Shown: positions 1-13,468 of the stretch, in pieces
How positions within the stretch are numbered: the stretch's first letter is position 1
Layout: each line of letters starts with the position of its first letter
Assembly (NCBI GenBank): GCA_050744025.1
Contig: JBOGGR010000327.1
Span: forward strand, 1-13,468
Direction of reading: 5' to 3'
DNA length: 13,468 nt
DNA from: Acidimicrobiales bacterium
Lineage (GTDB): Bacteria; Actinomycetota; Acidimicrobiia; Acidimicrobiales; JAJPHD01
Notes under the pieces: model-generated
What the model was told of the DNA's origin: nothing
The model's database searches: none
The model's input: only the letters and a program-made list of their open reading frames with translations
Program-made: the position numbers and the translations under genes

Positions 1-1131
1 CCCCCCGGCCCGCTCGGCACCTGCTCGAAGGGCCCCGCCCCGCAGGGCAGCCGGGCGGCTGCTGCCGCCGCCGGTCATGGCGGCCACCGCCGCAGGAGTC
101 AGCAGCAACGACGCCTCGCCCCTGGCCTCCAGCTTGCGGCGGATGCCCCGGTAGCGGGGCTCACGTTCCTTGAACAAGGAGAGGAGCGGGGAGGCGATGA
201 AGATCGACGAGTAGGCCCCGCTGGTGAGGCCGATGACCAGGGCCAGTCCGAACTCCTGGAGGGTGGTGGCCCCCAGCAGCTCGGCCCCGATGAGCAGGAT
301 GGACAGGATCGGCAGGATGGCGGCGATCGAGGTGTTGAGCGAGCGCATCAGCACCTGGTTCATGGACAGGTTGACCGTGTCGGTGTACGTGAGGCGGCCG
401 GTGGCGCCGAGGCCCTTGGCGTTCTCCCTGACACGGTCGAAGACCACGATCGTGTCGTAGAGCGAGTACCCGAGGATGGTGAGCACGCCCACGACGGTGG
501 CCGGCGTCACCGGGAACCCGACCAGGGCGTAGATGCCCACGGTCACGACGAGGTCGTGGAGGACAGCGATCAGGGCGGCGGCGGCCATCTTCCACTCGAA
601 GCGGAACGTGATGTAGAGGCCGATGCAGATGAAGAAGATGATCAGGGCCCGGATGGCCTTGGACGTGATCTCGCCGCCCCAGGTCGGGCCCACGGACGTC
701 TCGCTCACGGCTGTGGGGTTCACGTGGGCGAGCCGGGCCAGCGCGGCCGCCACCGACTGCTTGGTGGCAGCCTGCTGGGCCGGAGTGCCGGTCACCTGGG
801 CCTGGACGTCCAGGGTCCTGCTGGTGCCGCTGCCCAGGGTCTGGATGGTGGCGTTGGTGCCCGCCGCCCCGAGGGCGGTGCGAGCCTGGGACGGGGTGAC
901 CGCTGTGGTCGACACCTCCCAGGAGGTCCCGCCCTTGAAGTCGATGCCGAAGTTGAGGCCCTTGACGCCGAGGGCGGCCATGCCGGCCACGATGACGACG
1001 GCCGATATGGCGAACCACCGCCGCCACTTCCCCACGAAGTCGAAGGACGTCTCCCCCCGGTACAGGCGGGTCCAGATGCTGTGGCGCCGCTCTTCCTCCA
1101 CCGCGGCGGCGACGGCGTCGGTGGCGGTCAC
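1..1131 (-). CDS. secF: Protein-export membrane protein SecF, 3' end truncated by the window edge. GTG start at 1131 overlaps the secD stop in a GTGA arrangement.
   Basis: Hand translation of the minus strand from GTG at 1131-1129 gives VTATDAVAAAVEEERRHSIWTRLYRGETSFDFVGKWRRWFAISAVVIVAGMAALGVKGLNFGIDFKGGTSWEV...LIIFFICIGLYITFRFEWKMAAAALIAVLHDLVVTVGIYALVGFPVTPATVVGVLTILGYSLYDTIVVFDRVREN...LTSGAYSSIFIASPLLSLFKEREPRY. These are classic SecF motifs and TM topology. There is an in-frame TGA 24 nt upstream of the GTG, and the frame stays open to position 1. The ORF track does not list it because it has no ATG and no stop inside the window; the track ORF 161..1159(-) is the wrong frame. Confidence 0.9.
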   Translation of the reverse strand, partial: MTATDAVAAAVEEERRHSIWTRLYRGETSFDFVGKWRRWFAISAVVIVAGMAALGVKGLNFGIDFKGGTSWEVSTTAVTPSQARTALGAAGTNATIQTLGSGTSRTLDVQAQVTGTPAQQAATKQSVAAALARLAHVNPTAVSETSVGPTWGGEITSKAIRALIIFFICIGLYITFRFEWKMAAAALIAVLHDLVVTVGIYALVGFPVTPATVVGVLTILGYSLYDTIVVFDRVRENAKGLGATGRLTYTDTVNLSMNQVLMRSLNTSIAAILPILSILLIGAELLGATTLQEFGLALVIGLTSGAYSSIFIASPLLSLFKEREPRYRGIRRKLEARGEASLLLTPAAVAAMTGGGSSRPAALRGGALRAGAERAGG

Positions 1132-2651
1132 CCGGCCCCCTGACCGGCCGGTGCCTCACCCCGGCGAAGGGCCCGGTCGCCCCGGACGGCCGGGGTGGCG
1201 AGGCCCCTCGCCACCCCGATGAACCGGGCCTCGGTGAAGAAGCGGCTCCGGCCGAGCAGGATCACGAAGGGACGGGTGAAGGTCCAGGCCGTGACCAGGT
1301 CTAGGAGGGTGGACAGGCCGAGGTAGAAGGCGAAGTTCTTGACGTCGGCGGTGGAAAAGACGTAGAGCACCACGGCCCCGATGAGCGACACCAGGTCGGC
1401 GGCGACGATGGTGCGGAATGCGGCCGTGAAGCCGCGGTCCACCGAGGACCGCACGGACTTGCCCGATCTGACCTCGTCCTTCAGGCGCTCGAAGAAGACT
1501 ATGTAGGAGTCGACGATGACCCCCACCGACACGATCAGGCCGGTGATGCCGGCCAGGTCGAGGGTCAGGCCGGCCGGCGAGTGGCCGAGGTAGGAGATGA
1601 TGGCCCACAGCAGCAGCGCCGTCGTGACCAGGCCGAGGAGCACGACGATCCCGAGCGCCCGGTAGTAGAGGACGGTGTAGATGAACACCAGGGCAAGGCC
1701 CACGATGGCGGCCAGGATGCCGGCCTTGAGCGAGGCCGTCCCCAGGGTGGGCGAGACGCTCTGCACCGTCTGCTGGATGAGTTGGACGGGCAGGGCGCCG
1801 TAGCGCAGCTCGAGGGCCAGGTCCTTGGCCTGGGACTCGGTGAAGCTGCCGGTGATCTGACCCTTGCCGCCGAAAGTCCTGGCCTGGATGACCGGGGCCG
1901 ACTCGACCACGCCGTCCAGGACGATGGCGACCTGCTTTTGGTAGTTGGCCGTGGCGATGCTGTCGAAGGTGGGCGAGCCCTTGGCGGTGAGGGTGAAGTT
2001 GACCTGCCACTGGCCGGTCTGGGTGTTGAGGCCGGCGTTGGCGGTCTTGATGATCGTGCCGCTCGCCTGAGACGGTCCGAGGATGTAGCGGCCGGGGACC
2101 GACCCGTTGACCGACTTGAGCGGGAGCAGGACCTCTACCCCCGGCGTGTCCAGGCTCCTCGGCGTGCTGGGCACGTCGGCGAAGTTGACGTTGGTGCTGG
2201 AGGAGGTCGGACAGGCCGGGGGCGGCCCGTGGAGGGTGGGGGGGGACTTGCCCTTGGGAACGGGCTTGGTCGGTGAGTAGGCCGGGAGCGGCCCGGAGGC
2301 CGAGGCGGGCGGGCAGAGGACGGGCCGGAATCGCAGCTGGGCCGTCTGGCCGATGACGGCCAGGGCCTGGGCCCGGTTCTTCACGCCCGGGAGCTGGACG
2401 CTGATGTTGCCCCCGGCGCTGCTGATGTTGGGCTGGGACACGCCGAACGCGTCGACCCGGTTGCGGATGATGGCGATGGTCTGGGTGATGACGTCTGGCT
2501 TCACCGGGTGGGCCGGCTTGTACACGACCGAGATCCCGCCCTGGAGGTCCAGGCCGAGCAGGGGGGCCCAGCCCAGGGCCACCACGGCGACGAAGACGGC
2601 GATCGAGACGGCGATCGTCCCGCTCACCCAGGCCCACAGCCGGCCCCTCAT
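1128..2651 (-). CDS. secD: Protein-export membrane protein SecD
   Basis: The 507-aa ORF has an N-terminal TM helix (MRGRLWAWVSGTIAVSIAVFVAVVALGW), then LDLQGGISVVY, NRVDAFGVSQPNI, a periplasmic P1 domain, and a C-terminal six-TM SecD/SecF core (LKAGILAAIVGLALVFIYTVLYYR...GITGLIVSVGVIVDSYIVFFERLKDE). It sits directly upstream of secF with a 4-nt overlap. It contains a Pro-rich low-complexity linker (PPASASGPLPAYSPTKPVPKGKSPPTLHGPPPACPTSSS). Confidence 0.92.
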   Translation of the reverse strand: MRGRLWAWVSGTIAVSIAVFVAVVALGWAPLLGLDLQGGISVVYKPAHPVKPDVITQTIAIIRNRVDAFGVSQPNISSAGGNISVQLPGVKNRAQALAVIGQTAQLRFRPVLCPPASASGPLPAYSPTKPVPKGKSPPTLHGPPPACPTSSSTNVNFADVPSTPRSLDTPGVEVLLPLKSVNGSVPGRYILGPSQASGTIIKTANAGLNTQTGQWQVNFTLTAKGSPTFDSIATANYQKQVAIVLDGVVESAPVIQARTFGGKGQITGSFTESQAKDLALELRYGALPVQLIQQTVQSVSPTLGTASLKAGILAAIVGLALVFIYTVLYYRALGIVVLLGLVTTALLLWAIISYLGHSPAGLTLDLAGITGLIVSVGVIVDSYIVFFERLKDEVRSGKSVRSSVDRGFTAAFRTIVAADLVSLIGAVVLYVFSTADVKNFAFYLGLSTLLDLVTAWTFTRPFVILLGRSRFFTEARFIGVARGLATPAVRGDRALRRGEAPAGQGAG

Positions 2652-2705
2652 GGCTCCACCGCTCGCGCCGCCATGCTCACCGGGGCACGGTCTTCGAGGG
2701 TGCCC

Positions 2706-3425
2706 TCACTCAGCGCGCCGCTCCCTTGGTGTCGCCTTCCGCGGCGGCGCCTTCTCCAGGTCGGGGGATGCCGGTGCCACGCCGAAGATGCGACCCAGGT
2801 CGGCGCCCCGGCCCGCCTTGCCGTTGCGTACCCGGCCGTCGCGCCCGGCACCGCCCGGCGCGGCCCCGTCGACTCGGGGGGCGTTGCCTCGGGCGGCTCC
2901 GTCGTGCCCGGCCTTCTCGAGGTGGCGACCATCCCGGCCTTCGCCCTCCTCGTCCTCGTCCTCCTCTTCGACGGCGTCTCCGCTCCCGTCCTCGTCCTGC
3001 TCGGACTCCTCGGGGTGGTAGCCGTGCCAGCCGCGGTCCTCCTCGTCGTCGTCGTCGTCGTACTCCTCGTCGTCCCCGACCGTCCCCTCGTCCTCGACGT
3101 CGGTGTCCACTGCAGGCTCGATCTTGCGGGATATGGCCTGGCGGATGAACTCCAGCTCCAGGTCCGGACCCACCTCGAGGATGGTGCGGTCGCCCTCGAT
3201 CGAGACCACCCGCCCGACGATCCCCCCGATGGTGACGACGGTGTCGCCCTCCTCCACCGACTTCTGCGCCTGCTGTTGGCGCTGCTGTCGCTTGCGCTGG
3301 GGCCTGAAGATGAGGAGGTACGCGATGATCAGGAGGGGGATGATGAAGATGATGAAGCTGCCGGAGCCGCTGGACTTCTTTGCTGCGGCGACGAGCAGGG
3401 TCGGAACCAGGAAGATCGTGTGCAT
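2706..3425 (-). CDS. yajC: Preprotein translocase subunit YajC with an unusually long low-complexity C-terminal tail, acidic first and then basic
   Basis: The N-terminal 100 aa (MHTIFLVPTLLVAAAKKSSGSGSFIIFIIPLLIIAYLLIFRPQRKRQQRQQQAQKSVEEGDTVVTIGGIVGRVVSIEGDRTILEVGPDLELEFIRQAISRKIE) match the YajC fold, with a single TM followed by a GGIxG beta domain. ATG at 3425. The gene is in the conserved position between tgt and secD. The remaining ~140 aa are D/E-rich (EEYDDDDDEEDRG...EEEDEDEEGEG) and then R/G/A-rich. Confidence 0.85.
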   Translation of the reverse strand: MHTIFLVPTLLVAAAKKSSGSGSFIIFIIPLLIIAYLLIFRPQRKRQQRQQQAQKSVEEGDTVVTIGGIVGRVVSIEGDRTILEVGPDLELEFIRQAISRKIEPAVDTDVEDEGTVGDDEEYDDDDDEEDRGWHGYHPEESEQDEDGSGDAVEEEDEDEEGEGRDGRHLEKAGHDGAARGNAPRVDGAAPGGAGRDGRVRNGKAGRGADLGRIFGVAPASPDLEKAPPRKATPRERRAE

Positions 3426-3530
3426 GTCGATGGCCTTCGCGCTCGGAGCGGGCGACCATCGACGTTAGCCGACCTGGAGGCCCGCGCCGGTGCGGGGCAA
3501 GTCCGGGGGCCCGCGGCCGGGCGTCCCGGG

Positions 3531-3578
3531 CCGGGGGGCTGGTGGGGCGGTTGGCCGGGGGGCTGGTGGGGCGATTGG
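3531..3578. repeat. Perfect-but-one 24-bp tandem direct repeat x2 (ccggggggctggtggggcg[g/a]ttgg) in the tgt-yajC intergenic region, followed by a partial third copy (ccgggcgcc). G-tract-rich on the plus strand.
   Basis: Read directly in the sequence: copies at 3531-3554 and 3555-3578. It lies between the tgt stop (3595) and the yajC start (3425). Confidence 0.8.
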
Positions 3579-3594
3579 CCGGGCGCCGCTGGGC

Positions 3595-4788
3595 TCACGA
3601 CCAGACCGCGGCCACCTCGGCCCGGAGCCGGGCCAGCCGCCCGGCCGCCACCGCCGCCCTGGCCCGGGCCACCAGCCCGAGGGTCCAGGCCAGGTTGTGG
3701 AGGCTGAGCAGGCGGAGGACGGTCGGCTCCCCCACGGCCATGAGGTGACGGAGGTAGGCCCGGGACCAACGGGCGCACACCGGGCAGGGACAGGCTGGGT
3801 CCGGCGGCGCCGGGTCGGCCCGGTGGGCGGCCCGGCGCAGGGACACCGGGCCCGTGGCGGTCAGCACCCGGCCGTGGCGGGCCAGACGGGTGGGCGCCAC
3901 GCAGTCGAACAGGTCGACGCCGAGGGCGACGGCCTCCACCAGGCCGAGCGGATCGCCGACCCCCATCAGGTAGCGCGGCCGGTCCGGGGGCAGCTCCGCC
4001 AGGGCGGCAGCCAGCGCTGCCAGCATCTGGTCCCGGCGCTCCCCCACGGACAGCCCGCCGATGCCGTAGCCGGCGAAACCCAGCTCGGCCGTGCGCCGGG
4101 CGCTCCCGGCCCGCAGGCCCTCGTCCACCCCGCCTTGGACGATCCCGAACAGGGCCTGCCCCTCCCGCCGGTGAGCCCGGCGGGCCCGCTCGGCCCACCG
4201 CAGGGTGCGATCGGCCGCCTCCTGCACCACCTCGGCCGGCGCCGGGAGGCGCGGGCATACATCGAGGGCCATCTGGATGTCCGCTCCGAGCTGCTCCTGG
4301 ACGGCGACGGCCCCCTCGGGCGTCAGCAGGTGGAGGCTGCCGTCGTAGACCGACTTGAACCGGACCCCCTCCTCCTCCACCTGGCCCGAGAGAGACATGA
4401 CCTGGAAGCCCCCGGAGTCGGTGAGGACGTGGCCGGGCCAGGCGGCGAAGCCGTGGATGCCCCCGAGGGCGGCCACCACGTCCGCCCCGGGCCGGAGCAT
4501 GAGGTGATAGGTGTTCGAGAGGACCACCTGGGCGCCCAGGTCCTCGAGATCAGCGCCGGAGAGGGCCCGCACGCTGCCCCTGGTGGCGACCGGCATGAAG
4601 CACGGCGTGGCGAAGCTCCCCCTGGGCGTCTCCACCCGGCCGGCCCGAGCCCCGCCGTCGGTGGCCTCGACCACCAGACGCAGGTCGGCGCTCGCTGCCC
4701 CCCCCCGGCCGCCGGCCGGGTCGCCGGCGCTCAAAGGGTCGCCGGCGCTCAACGGGTCGCCGGCGCTCAGCGGGTCGCCGGCGCTCAA
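3595..4788 (-). CDS. tgt: Queuine tRNA-ribosyltransferase (tRNA-guanine transglycosylase). The start is uncertain: a TTG at 4788 overlaps the queA stop in a TTGA arrangement and would add an N-terminal (LSAGDP)x4 repeat; the conservative alternative is a GTG at 4674.
   Basis: The C-terminal 360 aa of the track's 1029-aa ORF read ...LRLVVEATDGGARAGRVETPRGSFATPCFMPVATRGSVRALSGADLEDLGAQVVLSNTYHLMLRPG...LTDSGGFQVMSL...GIVQGG...YLMGVGDP...CPCPVCARWSRAYLRHL. This is the Tgt catalytic core with its CxCxxC...H zinc site. The part of that ORF upstream of ~4800 is low-complexity read-through and is not real. GC3 stays high in the Tgt frame through the 18-bp repeats, which supports the long start. The GTG at 4674 aligns with the canonical Tgt N-terminus (E. 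coli MKFELDTTDGRARRG). Confidence 0.85.
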   Translation of the reverse strand: MSAGDPLSAGDPLSAGDPLSAGDPAGGRGGAASADLRLVVEATDGGARAGRVETPRGSFATPCFMPVATRGSVRALSGADLEDLGAQVVLSNTYHLMLRPGADVVAALGGIHGFAAWPGHVLTDSGGFQVMSLSGQVEEEGVRFKSVYDGSLHLLTPEGAVAVQEQLGADIQMALDVCPRLPAPAEVVQEAADRTLRWAERARRAHRREGQALFGIVQGGVDEGLRAGSARRTAELGFAGYGIGGLSVGERRDQMLAALAAALAELPPDRPRYLMGVGDPLGLVEAVALGVDLFDCVAPTRLARHGRVLTATGPVSLRRAAHRADPAPPDPACPCPVCARWSRAYLRHLMAVGEPTVLRLLSLHNLAWTLGLVARARAAVAAGRLARLRAEVAAVWS

Positions 4789-4792
4789 CGTC
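4721..4792. repeat. 18-bp tandem repeat x4 (tcgccggcgctcaVNggg; unit starts at 4721, 4739, 4757 and 4775) at the queA 3' end and tgt 5' junction. A C9 homopolymer lies immediately adjacent at 4698-4706.
   Basis: Read directly in the sequence. In the tgt frame it encodes the hexapeptide SAGDPL x4. The last copy contains the queA stop codon (4785-4787). Confidence 0.85.
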
Positions 4793-5783
4793 GGGCGACC
4801 AGCATGGCGTCGCCGAACGAGAGGAAGCGGTAGCCCGAGTCGCGGGCGACCCCGTACAGGTGGCGCCACCGCTCCCCGCAGAACGCCTCCACCATCAGCA
4901 GGAGGGACGACCGGGGAAGGTGGAAGTTCGTGAGGAGCACGTCCACCACCCGCCAGTCGTGGTGGCCGTGGATGTAGAGCGACGTCCGGCCGGCCAGGCG
5001 GCCGGTCACCTCCACCGTCTCGAGCGCCCTGACCGTGGTCGTGCCCACCGCCACCACCCGGCGGGCCGTGCGGCAGGCCTCCATCGTCGAGGCGGGCACG
5101 TCGTAGGCCTCGGTGTGGATCACGTGGTCCTCGGGACGCTCGGCCGTCACCGGGCGGAACGTGTCCAGGCCGACGGCGAGGTCGACCGCGACCACTCCGA
5201 TCCCGGCCCGGCTGAGCCGGTCCAGCACAGGAGCGTCGAGGTGGAGCCCGGCCGTCGGCGCCGCCACCGACCCCGGGCGATGGGCGTACACGGTCTGGTA
5301 GCGCGACGGGTCGGCCAGGGGCCGGTGGAGGTAGGGCGGCAGGGGCAGGCTGCCGTGGACCTCGGGCAGGGAGGGATCCAGGAGGTTGACGACCCGCCGG
5401 CCCTCGCCGAGGTCCTCCCCGACCTCCAGGGCGGCCGCCTCCCCGGCGTAGAGGGTGTCGCCGGGGCGCACCTTGCGGGAGTGGCGAACGAGGGCCTCCC
5501 AGCGCACCGGCGCAGCGGCGGTCCCCCGCGCGAGGGGTGTGAGGAGGAGGACCTCGACCGCCCCGCCGGTAGGCCGGCGAAGATGGAGCCGGGCCGGGAG
5601 GACCTTGGTGTCGTTCACCACGACCAGGTCGCCAGGCCCCAGCAGGTCGGGGAGGTCCGCCACCCTCCTGTGGTCCAGGGTGCCACCCGGGTCGGTGGCC
5701 ACGAGGAGGCGGGCCGAGCTGCGGGGCTCCGCCGGCTCCTGGGCGATGGCGGTCTCCGGGAGGTCGTAGTCGTACGCAGCCAT
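4785..5783 (-). CDS. queA: S-adenosylmethionine:tRNA ribosyltransferase-isomerase QueA. ATG at 5783; an alternative GTG at 5795 would add VGQP.
   Basis: The translation MAAYDYDLPETAIAQEPAEPRSSARLLV...VVNDTKVLPARL...YQTVYA...PGSVAAPTAGLHL...VGTTTVRALE...LTNFHLPRSSLLLMVEAF...YRFLSFGDAML aligns along its whole length with E. coli QueA (MRVTDFSFELPESLIA...YQTVYS...PGAVAAPTAGLHF...NFHLPEST...YRFFSYGDAMF). Confidence 0.92.
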   Translation of the reverse strand: MAAYDYDLPETAIAQEPAEPRSSARLLVATDPGGTLDHRRVADLPDLLGPGDLVVVNDTKVLPARLHLRRPTGGAVEVLLLTPLARGTAAAPVRWEALVRHSRKVRPGDTLYAGEAAALEVGEDLGEGRRVVNLLDPSLPEVHGSLPLPPYLHRPLADPSRYQTVYAHRPGSVAAPTAGLHLDAPVLDRLSRAGIGVVAVDLAVGLDTFRPVTAERPEDHVIHTEAYDVPASTMEACRTARRVVAVGTTTVRALETVEVTGRLAGRTSLYIHGHHDWRVVDVLLTNFHLPRSSLLLMVEAFCGERWRHLYGVARDSGYRFLSFGDAMLVARR

Positions 5784-5834
5784 GGGCTGACCCACGAGGT
5801 GACCGTAGCCGGGTCCCGGAGACCGGGCCGCTCG

Positions 5835-6449
5835 TCAACCGGTGGCGGCTCGGACGGCCGAGTACGCGGCGAAGCCGAGCAGGATCAGGGCCATGCACTG
5901 CTGGGCTCGGTAGATGGGCACCCGTTCCAGGACCTTCGCCCCGACAGACAGAGCCAGGCCGGAGACGGCCCACAGGGCTGCCAGCGCCCCCACGGCCACC
6001 GACAGCGGGTCGGCGTACTGGGCCGCGAAGTTGGCCGTCGCCACCTGGGTGATATCGCCCCACTCGGCCAGGAACACCACTCCGAACGATGTGGCCACCA
6101 CCCGCCCCAGCGGGGCGGGGCGGCGCCCACTTCGGCGCGGGGGCGCCGCCTCGGCGAGAGCCGGCCCCTCGGCGGGAGGCCCCCGGCGGGCGGTGAGGAG
6201 CACGAAGACTCCTCCCGCGGCGAACAGCACAGCCACGACGGCCTCCACCAGCCGGTGGGGCAGCAGGGCGAACAGGCCCCCGGCCACCACGGCCACTGCG
6301 ACCTCGACCACGAAAGCCCCCGCCGCGCCCAGCCACACCGGGAACGGCCGGTGGCGGGTGGACAGGACCAACGAGGCGATCAGGCTCTTGTCGGGCAGCT
6401 CGCCGACGAAGACCACCCCGAACACCGTGGCGGCCAGGGCCAGGTTCAC
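5835..6449 (-). CDS. UPF0016/GDT1 (TMEM165, MneA-like) family putative Mn2+/Ca2+:H+ transporter. GTG start at 6449 lies 7 nt downstream of a GGGAGG SD.
   Basis: It has two copies of the family signature E-x-G-D-(K/R)-(S/T), namely ELPDKS and EWGDITQ, each at the start of a three-TM repeat. The protein is about 205 aa and hydrophobic. The track ORF (to 6632) extends through the riboswitch-like leader and is implausible. A GTG preceded by gtcGGGAGGccggcg gives an N-terminus (V/M)NLALAATVFGVVFVGELPDKS. Confidence 0.8.
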   Translation of the reverse strand: MNLALAATVFGVVFVGELPDKSLIASLVLSTRHRPFPVWLGAAGAFVVEVAVAVVAGGLFALLPHRLVEAVVAVLFAAGGVFVLLTARRGPPAEGPALAEAAPPRRSGRRPAPLGRVVATSFGVVFLAEWGDITQVATANFAAQYADPLSVAVGALAALWAVSGLALSVGAKVLERVPIYRAQQCMALILLGFAAYSAVRAATG

Positions 6450-6455
6450 CGCCGG

Positions 6456-6461
6456 CCTCCC
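6456..6461 (-). promoter_or_regulatory. Shine-Dalgarno GGGAGG for the UPF0016 transporter gene
   Basis: The minus strand reads gtcGGGAGGccggcgGTG; the plus-strand equivalent is cctccc at 6456-6461. Confidence 0.6.
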
Positions 6462-6480
6462 GACGTTCCCACGTGGGGGG

Positions 6481-6511
6481 GCTGTGCTGGCAACCGTGGC
6501 TGTGCTGGCAA
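6481..6511. repeat. 13-nt direct repeat x2 (plus gctgtgctggcaa; minus-strand RNA UUGCCAGCACAGC) separated by 5 nt, inside the 5' leader of the UPF0016 gene
   Basis: Read directly in the sequence: 6481-6493 and 6499-6511. Its UGCCAGC core is complementary to the GCUGGCA segment of the upstream aptamer candidate. Confidence 0.75.
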
Positions 6512-6587
6512 GCGCCCACTCCCTCCGGCTCTGGAGCCGGGGGGAAGGCGGGGAGCCACTTCGACCCGGCCCGACGGGCAGGTCGAA

Positions 6588-6691
6588 GGTCTCGCTCGTC
6601 CATCTCACACGATGGACCCAGTGGCCGGGCACCTGTAGGTGCCAGCATGTCGACCGGCTGGCAGGCGGAGCTACTCCCCTTCACCTGTCAG
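6588..6691 (-). promoter_or_regulatory. Candidate yybP-ykoY (manganese) riboswitch aptamer in the 5' leader of the UPF0016/GDT1 transporter gene
   Basis: The minus strand reads cugacagGUGAAGGGGAGUAGCuccgccugccagccggucGACAUGCUGGCAccuacaggugcccggccacuggguccaucgugugagauggacGAGCGAGACC. It contains the hallmark L1 element GGGGAGUAGC, a CGACAU..UGGCA segment, and a 3' GAGnGAGACC end, as recalled for the yybP-ykoY consensus. Length is about 104 nt. It sits immediately upstream of a UPF0016-family gene, one of the canonical gene classes controlled by this riboswitch. A possible -10 TAGGCT (plus 6690-6695) lies just 5' of it. No covariance-model scan was possible here. Confidence 0.55.
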
Positions 6692-6946
6692 CCTAGCGCG
6701 CCGGGCCGGCGCCAAGTGCGATGACCTCGTCGGCGAGTGGGCCTGCCCAGCAAGCGGACCAGCGACACCCGCCGGCAGGGGTTACCGTGGGCCATGGCCT
6801 CCGGCACCTGGAAGACCCTGCTCCGCCGCTTCCTCAGGCTGTGGCGGAGCCGCCGCCAGAAGAGGCAGCCGGGGCGGCGCTCCCGCTGGTAGCGGGCCGG
6901 GGGCAGCCTCGTCTGGTGAGATCCACGATCCGGGGAGCCCGGCTGC

Positions 6947-8128
6947 CTACGCTCCAGTCTCCTCGACCCGGGCCATCACTCCATCGGTGCCCGTGCCGGG
7001 GCCGGCGGAGGCGGTGCCGGAGCTGGGCCGGCCCGCCTGGGCCGTCCTTCCGGGCGCCGCCCGCTGGAGGGCGTCCAGGATGGCCATGCCCTGGCCGATC
7101 AGGCCCGTCAGCATCTCGCTGATGCCATCGGCGCCGTTCAGTACCGTCAGGTTGGATCCTGACAGCCCCGAAGCGGCCGCCGTCACGAGATCGGGCAGCT
7201 GGTCGACGACCCGGTTGGAGGCGAGCAGCTGCTGGTTGCCCTCCTTCAGGCTGTCCGCCCGCAGGCGCATGGCGTCCGCCTCGGCCTGGGCCAGGGTCCG
7301 CTGCCTGTACGCCTCAGCGTCGGCCGGCCGCCGCACTGTGCCCTCGAGCCGCTTGGCGGCAAGGTCGGCCTCCAGGACGGCGCGCTTCGTCTGCTCGGCG
7401 ATCGTGCGCTGCTCCGCCGCCGCCTGGGCGAGGGGGCCGGCCTGGCTGGCCTCGGCCTGGGCCGTGTCCACCTCGGCCTGGTAGCCAGCCTGGGCGATCC
7501 TGGCCTGGCGGACGTACTCGGCCTTGCGGGCCTCGGACTCCTGCTCCCGCTCGGTGGCCTCCTGCTCGGCCTGGGCCTGGGCGACCCGGGCATCCTTCTG
7601 GACGACGGCGATGTGGGGAGCAGCCAGGCTCTTGATGTAGCCCGTCTCGTCGGTTATCTCCTGGATCTGGAGGCTGTCCACCACCAGCCCCAGCTTCTCC
7701 ATCTCCGAAGCCGACGACGCCTTGACCTCCTGGGTCAGCCGATCCCGCTCCCGGATGATCTCCTCGACTGTCAGGCCACCGACGATCGACCGGAGATGGC
7801 CGGAGAAGACCCGCCCGGCCAGGGATTCCATGAGATCCTGCTGGTCCAGGAAGCGGCGGGCGGCATTGGCGATGGACGACTCGTCGTCGCCCACCTTGAA
7901 CACCACCACCGCCTGGACCAGCAGGGGGATGCCCTGCTTGGTCACGCAGGGCTCGGAGATGCTGGCCTCCCGCAGGTCCAGCGACATGTAGCGGGCCTTC
8001 TGCTTGACCGGGACGACGAAGCAGCCATGACCTGTGATGATCCTGAACTGCGGGCCGCCGGGGTCCTTGTGCTTGGACCCGGAGATCACGAGGGCCTCGT
8101 TGGGGGCTGGGACCTTCCAGAACAGCAC
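6947..8128 (-). CDS. Flotillin-like SPFH/band-7 protein (YqiK/FloT family). GTG start at 8128 is preceded by a perfect AAGGAG SD.
   Basis: The N-terminus reads (V)LFWKVPAPNEALVISG...FRIITGHGCFVVP...SLDLREASISEPCVTKQGIPLLVQAVVVFKVGDD, which is the SPFH domain. It is followed by a long Ala/Gln/Glu-rich coiled coil (AQAQAEQEATEREQESEARKAEYVRQARIAQAGYQAEVDTAQAEA...) and a flotillin C-terminal domain. There is an in-frame TGA 60 nt upstream of the GTG, so no N-terminal hydrophobic anchor can be added. Confidence 0.9.
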   Translation of the reverse strand: MLFWKVPAPNEALVISGSKHKDPGGPQFRIITGHGCFVVPVKQKARYMSLDLREASISEPCVTKQGIPLLVQAVVVFKVGDDESSIANAARRFLDQQDLMESLAGRVFSGHLRSIVGGLTVEEIIRERDRLTQEVKASSASEMEKLGLVVDSLQIQEITDETGYIKSLAAPHIAVVQKDARVAQAQAEQEATEREQESEARKAEYVRQARIAQAGYQAEVDTAQAEASQAGPLAQAAAEQRTIAEQTKRAVLEADLAAKRLEGTVRRPADAEAYRQRTLAQAEADAMRLRADSLKEGNQQLLASNRVVDQLPDLVTAAASGLSGSNLTVLNGADGISEMLTGLIGQGMAILDALQRAAPGRTAQAGRPSSGTASAGPGTGTDGVMARVEETGA

Positions 8129-8134
8129 TGGGCT

Positions 8135-8140
8135 CTCCTT
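8135..8140 (-). promoter_or_regulatory. Shine-Dalgarno AAGGAG for the flotillin-like gene
   Basis: The minus strand reads ggtAAGGAGagcccaGTG, with 6 nt spacing to the GTG at 8128. Confidence 0.7.
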
Positions 8141-8327
8141 ACCAGTCGCAGGGGGCGACGACGACGCTGCGGGGAGAGCTCTGGTCCCTCACCATGCAAC
8201 GAGTGCCCTTGGGGATCGGCTGGCGCCCCTCCGAGTAGGCGGTGAAGGCCTCGGAGCCCCCCCGGACGAACAGGACGATCTCCCCTGGCCGATCCGCGTC
8301 GACCGGCACCGTGATCTGGCCGACCAT
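8139..8327 (-). CDS. Miniature NfeD-like protein consisting only of the C-terminal OB-fold beta-barrel domain, about 62 aa; a possible GTG start at 8348 would give 69 aa
   Basis: The last 62 codons of the track's 709-aa ORF are a wrong-frame read-through upstream of this point. They read MVGQITVPVDADRPGEIVLFVRGGSEAFTAYSEGRQPIPKGTRCMVRDQSSPRSVVVAPCDW. This matches the NfeD/YuaF C-terminal pattern G-x-V-x-V...G-x-V...G...A-x-S...I-x-x-G-x-x-V-x-V...G..L-V-V. Its stop lies 10 nt upstream of the flotillin start, the canonical nfeD-flotillin arrangement. The only space available before the upstream hydrolase stop (8408) is 80 bp, so no TM segment can be encoded. Confidence 0.55.
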   Translation of the reverse strand: MVGQITVPVDADRPGEIVLFVRGGSEAFTAYSEGRQPIPKGTRCMVRDQSSPRSVVVAPCDW

Positions 8328-8407
8328 GCCGAGGAGCGGCTCGTCCACCGGCTCACCAGTGGATTGCGGGTCGGGGCACGACCTCAGTGTAGGCGAGGGA
8401 GCGAGGC

Positions 8408-9172
8408 TCACCAGGGCCGGAGCCCGCCGAGGAAGTCCAGGACGGCACGGGCGAAGGCCGGACCGAGCATCGCGTTCATGTGGTTGCCTGGGACGGTGAC
8501 GGCCCTCCCCTCCTCCATCGGCTGGGCAAGCGGCTCGGGCCGCCCGGCCAGGGTGTCCTCGGACCCCGCCACCACCAGGCATGGCACGCCTACCTCTCCA
8601 GGAGTGGGTGCCGGCCACGAGGGCAACGCCCGCTGGAGGCAGGCCAGGGCAGAGCGGTCGGAGTGGGTGGCGTCGGCGAAGGCGCGAAAGGCGCGACCCG
8701 TCCGGTCCTCCACGTCGGCCAGCCGGCGCGCCTCCATGGCGGCGGCGACGGCCTCGGCGGCGGCCGCGTCCGTGCCCGTGAGCGTCGCCTCCCCCACCCC
8801 GCCGAGGACGAGGGCCCGGACCCGGGGATCGGCCGCTGCGACCAGGAGGCCTAGGCGTGCCCCCAGCGAGTACCCGCCCACCACCGCACCCGGGACGCCG
8901 GCCTGGTCGAGCAGGCCAGCGGCGTCCTCCACGAGTCGCCCGGGCGCGTATGCGTCCACCTGGTGGGGCGCCTCCGAGCGCCCGTGGCCCCGCAGGTCCA
9001 GCGCCAGCACCCGGTAGCCGGCGCCGGCCAGAGCGCCGGCGATCCCGGGCCGGACCCAGTTCACGAAGGCGTTGGCGGCGTAGCCGTGCAGGAGGACCAC
9101 CGAGGGGCCGTCGCCCTGGTCGTCGTAGGAGAGGGCGGTGCCGTCGGCGCTGCGGAGCGTGTTGAACGTCAC
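8408..9172 (-). CDS. Alpha/beta-fold serine hydrolase (esterase/lipase-type)
   Basis: 254 aa. It has the HG oxyanion motif (VVLLHGYAANAF), the nucleophile elbow G-Y-S-L-G (VVGGYSLGARLG), a late acid (VVAGSEDTLAG) and a C-terminal His (VPGNHMNAM). ATG at 9172. It is tightly packed between the EAL gene (stop 9200) and the mini-NfeD gene. Confidence 0.85.
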   Translation of the reverse strand: MTFNTLRSADGTALSYDDQGDGPSVVLLHGYAANAFVNWVRPGIAGALAGAGYRVLALDLRGHGRSEAPHQVDAYAPGRLVEDAAGLLDQAGVPGAVVGGYSLGARLGLLVAAADPRVRALVLGGVGEATLTGTDAAAAEAVAAAMEARRLADVEDRTGRAFRAFADATHSDRSALACLQRALPSWPAPTPGEVGVPCLVVAGSEDTLAGRPEPLAQPMEEGRAVTVPGNHMNAMLGPAFARAVLDFLGGLRPW

Positions 9173-9199
9173 GATCCCCGGCGGCGCGCCCTACGCCGC

Positions 9200-11239
9200 T
9201 CAGGCGAGGCCGGGAGAGCGGAGGTCGGCTCCGCCGGCCCGAGGGGATACGCCGTGGAGCCCCCGGAGGGGGCTGGCGACGAACGACATGAGGTCGTCCT
9301 CGGACAGCGGCCTCGAGATGTGATGGCCCTGGAGGAGGTCGAACCCGAAGCTGGCCATCCGGCGCAGGGTCTCCTCGTCCTCGACTCCCTCGGCCACCGC
9401 AGTGAGCCCGAGGCGGTGGGCCAGCTCCATGACGGTGCGGACGATGGCCTCGTCGGCCATCGAGGTCGACGAGCGCATCACGAACCGCTGGTCGACCTTC
9501 AGCTCGTCGAGCGGCAGGTGGGGAAGGGCGGCGAGGGAGGTGTAGCCGGTCCCGAAGTCGTCGATGGACACCCGGACGCCCCGGTCGTGCAGGGGCCGGA
9601 GCAGCCTGACTGCCTGCAGGAGGTCGGCGGCTGCGGTCTCGGTCACCTCCACCGTCAGGCTGGTCGAGGGGAGGGCGCGGGCCATGAGCTCGGAGAGGAG
9701 GCGGTCGGGCAGCTCGGGGTCGGTGAGGGTCTTGGCAGAAAGGTTGACCGACACGGGCATGTGTATACCCGCCCGGCGCCAGCGGACCTGGGCATCGAGC
9801 GCCTCGGAGAGCACCCATCCGCCCAACCGGTCGATGAGCCCGGTCCGCTCGGCCAGCAGGATGAAGCGTCCGGCCGGGACGTTGCCGTGGATCGGGCTGC
9901 TCCACCGCAGCAGGGCCTCCACGGCGACGGTCTGCCCGGAGTCGGGCGTCATCTGCGGCTGGTAGGCCAACCAGAGCTCCCCCCTGTCGCCGGCCAGGCG
10001 CAGGTCGGACAGGAGAGCCAGGTCGTCGGCCGTCATCGCCCCGTGGGCCCCGTCCCAGACCGCGATGACCCGCCCACTGGATGCGGCCCGGCGGGCGCTG
10101 AGGGACGCCCGGCGCACGAGCTCGGGGACATCGGTGCCATCGCGGGGCGCCACGGCGAGACCCACGTGGGCCCGCAGCGCCACCTCGACGCCGTCCACGA
10201 GGTAGTGGCCGGCACTGATCGCCTGGGCCAGCCGCCGGGCGAGGGACCAGGCGCCGTCGGGCGACCACATCAGGGGGACGTTGGAGTCCAGCTCCCGCCG
10301 GACCGACAGCGGCTCGTCCTCCAGGGCCTCGGTGACAACCAGCTCGTCACCGTCCACCCGGCCGATGACGGCGTCGGCTGGAAGGACCTGTCCGAGGTCC
10401 TCCACGGCCCGCCGGAGCAGCTCCGTCCCGACCCGGTACCCCAGAGCCTCACGGGCCTCGCCGATGCCCTCGAGCACCACCGCCGCCACGACGAACCCCG
10501 GGCGGTCCCGGTGGCTGGCCAGGTGACGGGCCAGGCCGGGGCCGTTCGGCAGGCCGGTGTCCGCGTCCACCGTGCTCTGGCGCCGGGCCGAGCGCGTCAG
10601 GAGGAGGACCGTCAGCAGTGCCGACGCCGTCGTGACAGTGGTGATGGCCGCGACGGCGGCGGCCCGGCCGGCGCCCTCCGAGCCCAGCATCGCCGCCCAC
10701 AGCCCGAGGCCGGCGAGGAGCGGGTAGCCGACGACGGCGCGAACCCCGAGGAAGAGAGCGACGAACACCCCTACCGGGACCACGAACGTCATGTAGGCGA
10801 ACCCGAGCCCGGAGCCGTGCTCCCCCCACACCAGCACCCAGACCTCCACGAGGGCGAGCACCGCCAGCAGCTGACCCCCGCGGGCGCTCACCTTGTCGAC
10901 CCGGAGCAGCACGACCCAGACGGCCGCCGTCGCCGCGCTGACCGCGATCACAGGCCCGGTCCTCAACCCCGGCGTCCGCAGGGCGAGCGCCGAAGCCGGC
11001 CACGACACCAGGCCCAGCCCGTAGACGAGGCGCATCACCGACAGAGGGCTCAACAGCTCCAGCGGCGCGTCGAGGGCGAACCAGGACCGCGTCTTGGGGA
11101 ACAGGCGGCTGCGCACCTGGACGCCGGCCGGCAGGCGGGCGCTGGTGACCGAGTGGTTGCGCTCGCCGGGCGGACCGGCCCAGCCCCGCCAGGCCGGATC
11201 GGGCGCGCGCGACGGCCTCATCGCCCACCTCATCGGCAC
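9200..11239 (-). CDS. Multi-pass membrane sensor with a degenerate GGDEF domain and an intact EAL domain, i.e. a putative c-di-GMP phosphodiesterase. Start uncertain; an internal M at VMRLVY is possible.
   Basis: About 5-6 N-terminal TM helices (LVYGLGLVSW..., VIAVSAATAAVWVVLL, LLAVLALVEVWVLVW, FVVPVGVFVALFLGV, LLAGLGLWAAML, AITTVTTASALLTVLLL). Then a GGDEF-like domain in which DADTGLPNGPGL replaces DxLTGLxNRR and GRVDGDELVV replaces aRyGGDEFvv; both are degenerate. Then a complete EAL domain: ELWLAYQPQ, EALLRW, N-loop VNLSAKTL, DDFGTGYTS, KVDQRFV, AEGVEDEE and QGHHISRP. Confidence 0.85.
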   Translation of the reverse strand: MPMRWAMRPSRAPDPAWRGWAGPPGERNHSVTSARLPAGVQVRSRLFPKTRSWFALDAPLELLSPLSVMRLVYGLGLVSWPASALALRTPGLRTGPVIAVSAATAAVWVVLLRVDKVSARGGQLLAVLALVEVWVLVWGEHGSGLGFAYMTFVVPVGVFVALFLGVRAVVGYPLLAGLGLWAAMLGSEGAGRAAAVAAITTVTTASALLTVLLLTRSARRQSTVDADTGLPNGPGLARHLASHRDRPGFVVAAVVLEGIGEAREALGYRVGTELLRRAVEDLGQVLPADAVIGRVDGDELVVTEALEDEPLSVRRELDSNVPLMWSPDGAWSLARRLAQAISAGHYLVDGVEVALRAHVGLAVAPRDGTDVPELVRRASLSARRAASSGRVIAVWDGAHGAMTADDLALLSDLRLAGDRGELWLAYQPQMTPDSGQTVAVEALLRWSSPIHGNVPAGRFILLAERTGLIDRLGGWVLSEALDAQVRWRRAGIHMPVSVNLSAKTLTDPELPDRLLSELMARALPSTSLTVEVTETAAADLLQAVRLLRPLHDRGVRVSIDDFGTGYTSLAALPHLPLDELKVDQRFVMRSSTSMADEAIVRTVMELAHRLGLTAVAEGVEDEETLRRMASFGFDLLQGHHISRPLSEDDLMSFVASPLRGLHGVSPRAGGADLRSPGLA

Positions 11240-11290: not shown

Positions 11291-13468
11291 TCAGGATGCC
11301 GAGGGGACCATGGCCACCAGGCTGCGGGCCCGGCGCAGCAGCGGGACCGCGCCCAGGCGCTCGAAGGTCCCGGCGGCCAGGGCAGCGAGCTCTGGCGCCC
11401 GGTCCGGCCGGTCCTGCGCAGCCAGCCACTCGGCGTGGTCCAGCCGGCTGAACGCCAGCCAGTACGGATAGCCCAGGCGTTCGAGCAGGGCCTCGCTCTC
11501 GGCGAAGTCCTCCTCCACCCCGGCGTGCTCCCCAGCCCCGGCCCCGGCCCGAGCCTCGACCCCCGTCCCGGCCCCGGCTCGCGTCCCGTCCCCCGCCCCC
11601 GTCCCGGCCCCCGCCCGGAACCGGGCCCGGAACCGGGCCGCCTGGGCCCGGAGGAACGGAGGAACCAGCCCGGCCGGCTGGTCAGCCACGAGGGCCAGGA
11701 GGGAGGCGGCCTCCTCCCTCCGGTCCAGCTCGAGGGCCGCCTCGACGGCAAGCGGCCAGGACAGCCGGAACGCCTCGTTGCACAGGCCCTCGGCCAGGAG
11801 GGACTCCCGCGCCGTCGTGCCCGCCAGCTCCAGGGCCTCGGGGATGCGGCTGTCGATGATGGCCACCGCGGCCGAGGCGTAGGCCCAGGCCAGGCGGTAC
11901 TGGACCTCGTCGGTGTGCTCCCAGGCGGCGATCCCGGCGAGGGCCGCCCTGGCCTCGGGGACCTGGCCGCGCATGACGTGGAGCATGACCGCACGGTCGG
12001 CGAACGAGTCGGCGCCCGGCCGGTCACGGGAGAGCTCGTCGAGGAGCCGCTCGGCCTCCTCGCAGCGCCCGGCCTGGAGGTGCTGCAGGGTCAGGTTGGC
12101 CCCAGCCAGCTTCTCGCCCGGTCGGTCCCCCAGGCGGCGGAACAGCTCCAGTGCGAGGACGGCGTGCTCGGCGGCCCCGGGCTGGTCGCTCTGGGCCCTG
12201 ATCTCTCCGCTCAGGGTGTGGGCGAAGGCGAGCTCCCGGGTGAGGTCGTGGGCCAGGGCGATGGCGACGATCCCGTCGGAGAGCACGGTGGCCTCCTGGC
12301 GCCGGCCGGCGAAGAGGAGCAGCATGCTCTTGCGCCTGAGGCAGGTGCAGAGGATCTCGGGCAGCTCGAGGGCCTCGGCCAGGAAGAGGGCCGTCTCCAG
12401 GTGGGCCGCCGCCTCCTCGCGGTGGCCGGCCAGCAGCAGGGCGCCAGCCATCGCCTGGGACAGGTCGGCCATGCCGGCTGTCCGGTCCCCCGGGCGGAGG
12501 ACCTCGAGGGCGGCGCGCAGGCGGGATATGGCCTCCTCGTGGCGGCCGAGGTGCCCGAGGGCCTCGGCCGTGCCGGCGACCAGGCGGGCCGCCTCGCGGT
12601 GACGCCCGGCGGCGGCGTGGGCGGCAATGGCCGCCTCCAGGAGCTCCAGGGACCGCTCGGCCCGGCCCGCCTGCCCGGCCATGCGCCCGGCCTGCTCGGT
12701 CAGAGCGGTGGCCTCCGCCTCCCCGCTGGCCAGGCCGGCCGCGGTGCAGTAGGCCGCCTCGGCCGCCTCCGGCGCCCCGACTGCCGCCGCCCGGGCTCCG
12801 GCCCGGGCGTAGGCCGCCAGCGCCTCGGCCCGGATCTCCCCGGCGTCCTCGTCCTCGGGCCCCGCCTCGTAGGCCTCCCGGTAGTGGGCGGCGATCACCT
12901 CGGCCATCTCCTCGCCGTCCCGGGCGAAGGCGGCACGCAGGTGGGCGGCCACGGCCCGATGGCGGGCCTTGCGCTCCCGCCGGCTCAACATGTCGTGGGC
13001 GACCGTGCGCAGCAGCGTCTGCACGAAGGTGTACTGCCCGCGCTCGGGCGAGAGGCGGTCGGCCCGGATGGCCAGGACCTCCTTGCGCACCAGCGAGCCG
13101 AGCAGCCGTTCCACCTCGGCCTCCGGGAGGCCTGTGACGGCGCCGACGGCAGCGCGGGGGAAGCTGCTGCCGAGCACGGACAGGCCCTTCACCAGCTCCC
13201 GCTCGGCCGGCTCCAGCCCGTCCAGGCGGGCGGCGATGAGCGAGGTCAGGCTGGACGGGACGTCGAGGTCCCCGATCTCCCCGACCAGGGTGTACACGCC
13301 GTCCCGGGGGAGGATCACGTCCCGGTCCATCAGGGACCGGACGGTCTCCACGGCGTAGAGGGGGACGCCCTCGGCCCGGGCCACGATCCGGGTCAGGGCG
13401 GCCTTGGGCATGCCGGGGACCAGGTCCTCCAGCAGGCGGCGCATGTCGGGCTCGGGGAGGGGGTCCAG
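11291..13468 (-). CDS. C-terminal region of a large STAND/AAA+ (AAA_16-type) ATPase-TPR family signalling protein, with about 725 aa inside the window. The N-terminus lies beyond the right edge.
   Basis: The frame is open to the window edge (...LDPLPEPDM RRLLEDLVPGMPKAALTRIVARAEGVPLYAVETVRSLMDRDVI...). This is the post-NTPase 'RxEGNPLFxxEL' helical motif typical of actinobacterial ATPase-TPR/LuxR-class and cyclase-associated regulators. After it come about 500 aa of Ala/Leu/Glu/Arg-rich TPR-like helical repeats (EALAAYARAG..., LGHLGRHEEAISRLRAALEV..., ALELFRRLGDRPGEKLAGANLTLQHLQAGRCEEAERLL...). Stop at 11291. Confidence 0.8.
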   Translation of the reverse strand: MDPLPEPDMRRLLEDLVPGMPKAALTRIVARAEGVPLYAVETVRSLMDRDVILPRDGVYTLVGEIGDLDVPSSLTSLIAARLDGLEPAERELVKGLSVLGSSFPRAAVGAVTGLPEAEVERLLGSLVRKEVLAIRADRLSPERGQYTFVQTLLRTVAHDMLSRRERKARHRAVAAHLRAAFARDGEEMAEVIAAHYREAYEAGPEDEDAGEIRAEALAAYARAGARAAAVGAPEAAEAAYCTAAGLASGEAEATALTEQAGRMAGQAGRAERSLELLEAAIAAHAAAGRHREAARLVAGTAEALGHLGRHEEAISRLRAALEVLRPGDRTAGMADLSQAMAGALLLAGHREEAAAHLETALFLAEALELPEILCTCLRRKSMLLLFAGRRQEATVLSDGIVAIALAHDLTRELAFAHTLSGEIRAQSDQPGAAEHAVLALELFRRLGDRPGEKLAGANLTLQHLQAGRCEEAERLLDELSRDRPGADSFADRAVMLHVMRGQVPEARAALAGIAAWEHTDEVQYRLAWAYASAAVAIIDSRIPEALELAGTTARESLLAEGLCNEAFRLSWPLAVEAALELDRREEAASLLALVADQPAGLVPPFLRAQAARFRARFRAGAGTGAGDGTRAGAGTGVEARAGAGAGEHAGVEEDFAESEALLERLGYPYWLAFSRLDHAEWLAAQDRPDRAPELAALAAGTFERLGAVPLLRRARSLVAMVPSAS
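11521..11650. repeat. In-frame low-complexity GC-rich microrepeat region inside the ATPase-TPR gene. It contains the motifs gtcccggccccg/gccccggcccc and a 12-bp tandem repeat x2 (cccggaaccggg at 11624-11635 and 11636-11647).
   Basis: Read directly in the sequence. It encodes RFRARFRAGAGTGAGDGTRAGAGTGVEARAGAGAGEHAG. Confidence 0.7.

Follow-up and report, generated by a model that had tools for sequence, protein, structure and literature searches.

An NfeD-type OB protein without a membrane domain, encoded beside an anchor-less flotillin in Actinomycetota

A 13,468-nt stretch of a metagenome-assembled genome (MAG) of an Acidimicrobiales bacterium (GenBank assembly GCA_050744025.1, contig JBOGGR010000327.1), hereafter the window, encodes a flotillin that begins directly at its SPFH domain and, just upstream, a small protein made up of an NfeD-type OB fold (mini-NfeD). 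Two more genes precede this pair, one for an alpha/beta-fold serine hydrolase and one for a membrane protein with a degenerate GGDEF domain and an EAL domain. The four open reading frames (ORFs) lie where an initial annotation had placed them (Table 1); that annotation read them as one operon-like module, in which a flotillin scaffold is linked to cyclic di-GMP (c-di-GMP). Comparison with related genomes points to a smaller functional unit: two genes, mini-NfeD and flotillin, which form a variant of the NfeD2-flotillin operon (YuaF-FloT, YqiJ-YqiK) devoid of transmembrane (TM) segments. Taken together with the mechanism set out below, this explanation has, in our estimate, a probability of about 65%.

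Table 1. Features of the window (G+C about 73%): the four genes of the cluster, followed by other genes and frames.
Feature	Position	Strand	Match or remark
EAL protein (multi-TM, degenerate GGDEF plus EAL)	9200-11239	minus	Pfam EAL E 1.7e-62; partial GGDEF E 1.6e-5
Alpha/beta-fold serine hydrolase, 254 aa	8408-9172	minus	Pfam Abhydrolase_1 E 7.8e-18
OB-only mini-NfeD, 69 aa from GTG 8348, soluble five-stranded beta-barrel	8139-8348	minus	Pfam NfeD 19.3 bits
AAGGAG, Shine-Dalgarno sequence of the flotillin gene	8135-8140	minus	Overlaps mini-NfeD TAA stop; read from sequence
Anchor-less flotillin (SPFH2-type), 393 aa	6947-8128	minus	Pfam Band_7 E 2.7e-26
TPR-repeat protein (upstream gene)	11291-13444	minus	NCBIfam TIGR03903, E 1.3e-20, far under cutoff
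GDT1-family cation transporter	inside 5835-6632	minus	
queA	4785-5795	minus	
tgt	C-terminal part of 3595-6684	minus	
secD	1128-2651	minus	
ORF	161-1159		No match in Pfam scan
ORF	2710-3459		No match in Pfam scan
1029-aa ORF	3595-6684	minus	High-GC read-through artefact: Tgt extended over queA and GDT1
709-aa ORF	8139-10268	minus	High-GC read-through: mini-NfeD frame across hydrolase and part of EAL gene

An anchor-less flotillin and an OB-only partner

In the flotillin, the SPFH domain is followed by a long coiled coil and then a C-terminal tail; the N-terminus reads MLFWKVPAPNEA. Pfam Band_7 (PF01145) matches residues 9-188 at 93.1 bits (cutoff 23.6), which identifies the SPFH domain. The best NCBIfam match is FloT (NF058507); its 180.1 bits fall under the equivalog cutoff of 700, so the protein is a relative of FloT and not an equivalog. 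Among sequences in the PDB, it matches human flotillin-1 and -2 best (E 5.5e-28 and 9.9e-27), with query residue 8 corresponding to chain residue 6. The alignment to flotillin-1 reaches residue 292, and a second stretch covers 262-351; the coiled-coil/flotillin region is thus represented as well.

The N-terminal membrane anchor is missing, as the initial annotation had held. Kyte-Doolittle hydropathy in 19-residue windows, for which 1.6 served as the threshold of a TM segment, peaks at 1.42 overall and at 0.6 in the first 60 residues. Nor can the ORF be extended, because a TGA codon lies in frame 21 codons upstream of the start with no start codon between the two; the AAGGAG sequence stands 6 nt before the initiating GTG.

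Anchor loss is a trait of a clade, since the aligned relatives all share the same N-terminus. The start M[LF]FW.VP.PNEA is common to 16 of 16 aligned relatives, as well as to homologues of 460-488 aa with longer coiled coils or tails, and a TM-grade segment occurs in none of the 16. The closest relatives (60-69% identical; 380-410 aa) come from Streptomyces, Kitasatospora, and MAGs of Acidimicrobiales and other Actinomycetota; relatives altogether number in the thousands. An AlphaFold2 (AF2) monomer model of the window protein is of moderate quality, with a predicted local distance difference test score (pLDDT) of 65, and contains the SPFH2 subdomain together with long helices at 164-324.

The small upstream ORF was first taken to encode about 62 aa from ATG 8327. 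A glycine that is invariant or nearly so among homologues sits upstream of this ATG, and the NCBI annotation of the source MAG calls a 69-aa protein, so the GTG start in Table 1 is more likely. It follows that the spacer between hydrolase and mini-NfeD is 59 nt rather than the 80 given originally; the other two spacers stand, at 27 nt between the EAL gene and the hydrolase and 10 nt between mini-NfeD and flotillin. The mini-NfeD frame is open for 709 codons in the window. However, G+C at third codon positions (GC3) is 0.91 within 8139-8348 but 0.58 in the extension upstream, where the hydrolase gene is read in a different frame. This switch marks the long frame as a high-GC artefact, with coding starting at about 8348.

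The encoded protein is a stand-alone, TM-less OB fold of the NfeD type, in agreement with the initial annotation. Its maximal hydropathy is 0.58, and the AF2 model is of very high confidence (pLDDT 95.7). Of the parts that make up NfeD proteins, it has the five-stranded C-terminal OB-fold ("partner-binding") domain; it lacks the N-terminal TM region of the short and long forms, and the ClpP/S49-type serine protease domain of the long form (NfeD1b). Five structures are listed for it, each with a value given here in brackets: 3wwv, PH1510-C (11.5); 2k14, YuaF, 31% identical (11.0); 3cp0, an NfeD-type soluble domain (10.6); 2k5h, MTH693 (9.0); and 2exd, an NfeD short homologue (8.5).

Sequence databases reveal this family with some difficulty. 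A word-indexed homologue search with the 69-aa ORF returned only the query itself, and the Pfam NfeD score of the window copy lies under the gathering score of 29.1. It took an exhaustive HMMER search, run against 1.84 billion representatives, to uncover the family, with 97 clusters at E<=1e-3, mostly of 65-110 aa; the longer members inspected were either over-called at their N-termini in GC-rich DNA or fusions. One significant match (P0191) is a classical multi-TM NfeD with a C-terminal OB domain, and its gene lies upstream of that of a TM-anchored flotillin. At E<0.01, the Pfam NfeD model recovers no more than 19 of 45 family members, with weak matches. NCBI names the proteins "hypothetical", whereas UniProt has assigned some of them the automatic name "NfeD-like C-terminal domain-containing protein". 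With such a label, and a sub-threshold match for the window copy, the mini-NfeD family is under-annotated.

The pair in other genomes

With one genome taken for each GTDB species, a pattern scan for flotillin relatives yielded at least 460 confirmed stretches; the best 80 loci were kept, and neighbours were sought by tblastn (E<=1e-3) within 7 kb on either side of the flotillin gene. A mini-NfeD homologue (38-59% identical) is encoded on the same strand and immediately upstream of the flotillin in 80 of the 80 loci. Gene calls reveal the same order in four further database loci. The spacer between the two genes ranges from 2 to 211 nt in relatives, with a median of 60. SPFH2 flotillins are known to be encoded in operons with NfeD homologues, with which they co-evolve (Hinderhofer et al. 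2009, PMC2636767), and an NfeD homologue adjoins the flotillin in the window and in every one of the related loci. In the window itself, the placement of AAGGAG over the mini-NfeD stop codon, together with the 10-nt spacer, would fit translational coupling of the two genes.

The small ORF is also preserved as such. It is intact in all 80 loci, at 65-85 aa (median 73), and even the longest possible ORF has a median of 81 aa, limited by in-frame stops; maximal hydropathy across these proteins ranges from 0.61 to 1.83. The ratio of nonsynonymous to synonymous substitution rates (dN/dS) is about 0.27 for mini-NfeD and 0.20 for flotillin: both genes are under purifying selection. Universal intactness, bounded length and the low dN/dS together establish mini-NfeD as a real, selected, stand-alone OB protein.

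So small an ORF might otherwise have been read as a decaying remnant, a pseudogene fragment of a full-length membrane NfeD, as its sub-threshold Pfam match and its far-reaching open frame in the window could suggest. Such a fragment is hard to reconcile with uniform lengths in every locus, with the shift of GC3 exactly where the ORF starts, or with a fold predicted so confidently. The invariable adjacency, the intact ORFs and the dN/dS refute this explanation, whose probability is next to nil.

The cassette is found in several lineages of the Actinomycetota: Streptomyces, Kitasatospora, Peterkaempfera, Wenjunlia, and MAGs of Streptosporangiaceae and Acidimicrobiales. Cultured streptomycetes are among its carriers, for example S. 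niveus, S. atratus, and S. lydicus. A literature search found no description of an OB-only NfeD or of an anchor-less bacterial flotillin, which bears out the initial annotation on the novelty of the arrangement. The pair occurs in actinobacterial genomes by the hundreds and has apparently gone undescribed.

Other loci display other combinations of anchors. At locus L088 (5001-6635), whose protein sequences appear to be of low-G+C origin, an OB-only NfeD homologue of 77 aa is encoded directly upstream of a flotillin with an N-terminal TM helix. This flotillin is 42% identical to that of the window and reads "...LIIKSMWKVADPNEALIISGG", so that its TM helix joins exactly at the point where the anchor-less proteins start. 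At locus L090, which is of the classical type, both partners have TM segments, and a genuine NfeD1b_N/S49 gene is seen there. L088, where an OB-only protein accompanies a TM-anchored flotillin, shows that the two partners can lose their anchors independently. In this series of anchor variants, the actinobacterial cassette stands at one extreme.

A reversed order was observed once. In locus L089 (positions 1-10207; Logan SRR29837715, a 254,597-bp contig), an anchor-less flotillin (3847-4989) is followed by an OB-only protein (5001-5207). A PspA/IM30 gene is found about 2 kb upstream of this pair, which belongs to a run of more than 20 short ORFs on the same strand, most of them without a Pfam match; those annotated include DUF6197 and an M50 peptidase. 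The region seems to be phage- or plasmid-like, with membrane-stress genes as cargo.

A separate gene for the missing membrane half of NfeD was considered and rejected. One candidate, a 152-aa multi-TM protein encoded just upstream of mini-NfeD in S. niveus (L003, 5155-5613), is shared by just 5 of the 80 loci, each from Streptomyces, and has no counterpart in the window. The protein encoded upstream of the L088 pair was rejected in the same role, because it is soluble.

The genes around the pair

Taken singly, the two upstream proteins are what they were first said to be. The hydrolase translation contains LLHGY, GYSLG, SEDTL and GNHMN, which supply the HG, GYSLG, Asp and His elements of the initial annotation; Pfam matches are to Abhydrolase_1, Abhydrolase_6 and Hydrolase_4, and NCBIfam matches are weak and below cutoff. 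The other protein has the EAL set EALLRW, VNLS, EVTE, DDFGTG, KVD, EGVE and QG (PF00563, 211 bits), so that its EAL domain is, to judge by motifs, catalytically complete; its GGDEF site is degenerate (DGDEL). It is also the only integral membrane protein of the four by hydropathy, with TM-grade segments confined to residues 96-214. NCBI calls it at 673 aa, which implies a start at ATG 11221.

The proposed grouping of all four genes fared less well. It envisages one operon for a c-di-GMP-linked SPFH scaffold, with the EAL protein as anchor and the hydrolase as provider of the processing activity of long NfeDs. Several features of the locus seem to invite this proposal: the genes share a strand; the spacers are short (27, 59, and 10 nt) and free of terminator-like folds; the EAL protein is the sole TM protein among the four; and the same cluster recurs in assemblies L001 and L002. 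However, every gene identified in the window (those for SecD, Tgt, QueA, GDT1, the four cluster proteins, and the TPR protein) lies on the minus strand, so co-orientation and short gaps are the local norm and provide no evidence for an operon. L001 and L002, the only places where all four genes occur together, encode proteins identical to those of the window, and thus are not independent evidence.

Comparison with the related loci is more telling. By the same tblastn search that recovered mini-NfeD 80 times, homologues of the hydrolase, of the EAL protein, and of the TPR protein were found in 0 of 80 loci each. What lies upstream of the pair varies among lineages: the ten nearest upstream genes scanned outside Streptomyces comprise three for STAS-domain proteins, two for MBOAT proteins, one each for a diacylglycerol kinase, PheT, and a PAS-GAF-SpoIIE protein, and two without a Pfam match, with no hydrolase or EAL gene among them. 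Conversely, full-length EAL orthologues (55-61% identity) are numerous in Acidimicrobiales MAGs, and three of their loci (59-61% identity; other MAGs of this order, with differing neighbourhoods) contain no flotillin, mini ORF, or related hydrolase. A scan of JGI metagenomes with the hydrolase found partial relatives of 28-36% identity only, and no close relative.

The hydrolase is also ill suited to stand in for the NfeD protease domain, as had been proposed. Its Pfam matches at E<=0.1 include no CLP_protease, Peptidase_S49, or NfeD1b_N. Rather, it has a generic Abhydrolase_1/6 fold, unrelated to the ClpP/S49 fold of long NfeDs, and the true NfeD1b protease gene (that of L090) differs from it. 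In sum, neighbourhood conservation holds for mini-NfeD and flotillin and fails for the EAL protein and the hydrolase. The four-gene operon thus appears largely refuted as a conserved system, and we regard it as highly improbable. Genome comparison would make the EAL phosphodiesterase and the hydrolase lineage-specific neighbours in a long unidirectional gene run, with no functional tie to the pair demonstrated.

A sigma-70 promoter and terminator scan found 0 promoter-like sites and a single terminator-like site on the opposite strand. The spacer between hydrolase and mini-NfeD has an RNA fold z of -0.46 and no terminator-like structure. In a genome of about 73% GC, such results say little about co-transcription. 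PADLOC found no defence-system match among the four cluster proteins.

Downstream of the flotillin gene, a run of housekeeping genes (1128-6632, minus strand) comprises secD, tgt and queA along with the GDT1-family transporter gene. Upstream of the EAL gene, the N-terminal part of the TPR-repeat protein resembles the middle of TOMM kinase/cyclase fusion proteins.

A conserved third gene beside the pair was also sought. No neighbour family occurs in more than 25 of 81 loci, the commonest being the SpoIIE/PP2C phosphatases, which are highly paralogous; in about 25 of the 81, such a phosphatase gene lies just downstream of flotillin. In three MAG lineages, a gene for a STAS-domain protein (anti-sigma antagonist) lies 6-64 nt upstream of the pair on the same strand (L017, 69-512, the same locus as L005, 171-512; L042, 6426-6767; and L043, 429-770). 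In Peterkaempfera, a PAS-GAF-SpoIIE gene lies upstream of the pair. Further partner-switching gene coordinates are L027, 8314-9915, and L058, 4309-6543. The recurrence of such genes may be a hint of stress-regulated expression or function of the pair, although these families are highly paralogous in actinomycetes.

A possible mechanism and its known counterparts

How might the two proteins work together? In the mechanism we favour, mini-NfeD and flotillin would be made together, and mini-NfeD would be the partner-binding module of NfeD, retained alone. Its OB barrel would bind the flotillin where the coiled coil starts, or close to that point, and bridge protomers, thereby promoting assembly of a ring or cage, as the OB domain of Staphylococcus aureus NfeD reportedly does with FloA. 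The assembly would lie peripherally on the cytoplasmic face of the membrane, held by a hydrophobic face of SPFH1 that includes the invariant N-terminal residues F3 and W4. Such attachment would be like that of the TM-less eukaryotic flotillins, but without lipidation. By analogy, then, we infer an OB protein that binds, and helps to oligomerise, a peripherally attached flotillin cage. This mechanism is preferred because SPFH2 flotillins co-evolve with the NfeD homologues of their operons, the S. aureus NfeD OB domain binds FloA, and QmcA-YbbJ forms a cage.

The closest known systems are YuaF-FloT (YuaG) of Bacillus subtilis and YqiJ-YqiK of Escherichia coli. As in the actinobacterial pair, the gene for the NfeD homologue comes first and that for the flotillin second. 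The likeness extends to the SPFH domain with its coiled coil, the OB fold, the operon partnership, and FloT as the best NCBIfam model, even if the window flotillin remains short of the FloT equivalog cutoff (180 versus 700 bits). What is missing here is the membrane attachment of both partners: YuaF and YqiJ have N-terminal TM helices, and FloT and YqiK an N-terminal membrane anchor.

The activity proposed for the OB barrel draws on S. aureus. There, the OB-like domain of NfeD attaches where the FloA coiled coil begins and provides the contacts between dimers, and the TM part serves in lipid targeting only (Ukleja et al. 2024, PMC11222466). This contact, and the oligomerisation to which it leads, is the activity that mini-NfeD may have retained. 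The S. aureus NfeD also has six TM segments, an SSD-like region by which it is targeted to microdomain lipids and which mini-NfeD lacks; and FloA, unlike the window flotillin, is shorter and TM-anchored.

Two systems illustrate SPFH-NfeD complexes more broadly. E. coli QmcA-YbbJ (PDB 8z5g, Tan et al. 2024) is described in PMC13086221 as a cage of 26 SPFH-NfeD heterodimers. A complex of this kind is proposed here too, but QmcA is of the stomatin type and both partners are TM proteins. The same source describes the ClpP-type protease domain of a long NfeD, in Pyrococcus horikoshii PH1510/PH1511, as cleaving stomatin. The hydrolase of the window, by comparison, is the product of a separate gene that does not accompany the pair in the related loci, and its alpha/beta fold is unrelated.

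For peripheral attachment, the model is eukaryotic. SPFH1 of eukaryotic flotillins enters one membrane leaflet through a hydrophobic surface rich in Trp and Cys, assisted by lipidation (PMC11260169; PMC12624060). The human flotillin-1/-2 44-mer (PDB 9bq2, 9l3g; PMC11260169) is likewise TM-less, its chains begin at the equivalent SPFH1 residue, and its peripheral attachment through a hydrophobic SPFH1 surface is what may apply to the window flotillin. Unlike the window pair, human flotillins need myristoylation or palmitoylation, form hetero-oligomers, and have no NfeD partner. The window flotillin is closer to bacterial flotillins, as exemplified by its 42% identity to the TM-anchored protein of L088, and its likeness in anchoring to human flotillins is probably convergent.

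The absence of a TM segment from both proteins, along with the lack of a conserved membrane-protein neighbour, could be taken to mean that the assembly never meets a membrane. The flotillin would then form a soluble, vault-like SPFH cage or a chaperone-like oligomer, with the OB protein as an internal or capping subunit and no role in membrane microdomains. There are precedents: the vault protein MVP has been cited as a cage of the SPFH family that is not associated with membranes (PMC12624060), and S. aureus FloA-NfeD has an ATP-independent stabilising effect on unfolded proteins (PMC11222466). The N-terminus argues otherwise. Its invariant hydrophobic and aromatic residues (M1, F3, W4, V6), with conserved SPFH1 residues, resemble the membrane-inserting surface of eukaryotic flotillins; and the TM helix of the L088 homologue (42% identity) joins precisely where the anchor-less chain starts, which suggests the same membrane-proximal geometry. 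A wholly soluble cage is thus unlikely, if the more credible of the two alternatives to peripheral attachment.

The other alternative takes B. subtilis SamI (YdjI) as its model, an SPFH protein that, like the window flotillin, has no membrane anchor of its own. Recruitment of this cytosolic protein by membrane partners, SamG and SamH (bioRxiv 10.64898/2026.02.06.704340), suggests that the actinobacterial flotillin might be cytosolic until recruited by a membrane protein encoded elsewhere, with mini-NfeD acting as adaptor or regulator. In some lineages, STAS genes directly upstream and SpoIIE/PP2C genes in the vicinity are a hint that the behaviour of the pair is regulated and linked to stress. 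However, SamI is encoded in the pspA operon, has no NfeD partner gene reported, and is recruited by membrane proteins of that same operon; no conserved membrane-protein gene adjoins the pair described here. Moreover, what the NfeD OB domain is known to do is to bind the SPFH partner itself (PMC11222466; Pfam name "partner-binding domain"). Recruitment is accordingly somewhat less probable even than the soluble cage.

Several points weigh against the two-gene unit with peripheral attachment. Residues 1-50 of the flotillin fall below pLDDT 50 in the AF2 model, so that the model says little about the proposed membrane-binding surface. To our knowledge, bacteria do not carry out the acylation on which membrane binding of eukaryotic flotillins depends, so that peripheral binding is here a proposal. 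The tblastn threshold of E<=1e-3 may overlook very divergent alpha/beta hydrolases. The gaps of 27, 59 and 10 nt, without terminator-like structure, mean that the four genes may be co-transcribed in this lineage. Finally, sampling beyond the source organism found no flotillin closer than about 68% identity, so a family-level four-gene cluster in unsampled close relatives is possible.

More broadly, a large actinobacterial clade may have reduced the SPFH-NfeD system to its soluble core: a flotillin that is peripheral, like those of eukaryotes, or membrane-free, like vaults, and a free OB subunit of about 70 aa that drives or caps cage assembly. We advance this broader proposal tentatively, as somewhat short of an even chance. 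If it is true, what NfeD proteins have in common functionally would be the assembly of SPFH cages through the OB domain and not a role of the membrane domain; flotillins without TM segments, an architecture described to date in eukaryotes, would have evolved independently in bacteria; and the system, being naturally soluble, would suit structural work.

The tempting link between c-di-GMP and a flotillin scaffold has been removed as unsupported, and what remains is simpler. The pair is widespread, undescribed, and experimentally convenient, yet it is an incremental variation on the known SPFH-NfeD partnership. With both proteins soluble and cultured Streptomyces among the carriers, it offers an easier experimental system for SPFH cage assembly and peripheral membrane binding. 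FloA and FloT are described as membrane-anchored, and their NfeD partners as membrane proteins. That both anchors have been lost here, yet the OB fold and strict gene linkage kept, argues that the contact between OB domain and flotillin is the indispensable part of the partnership.

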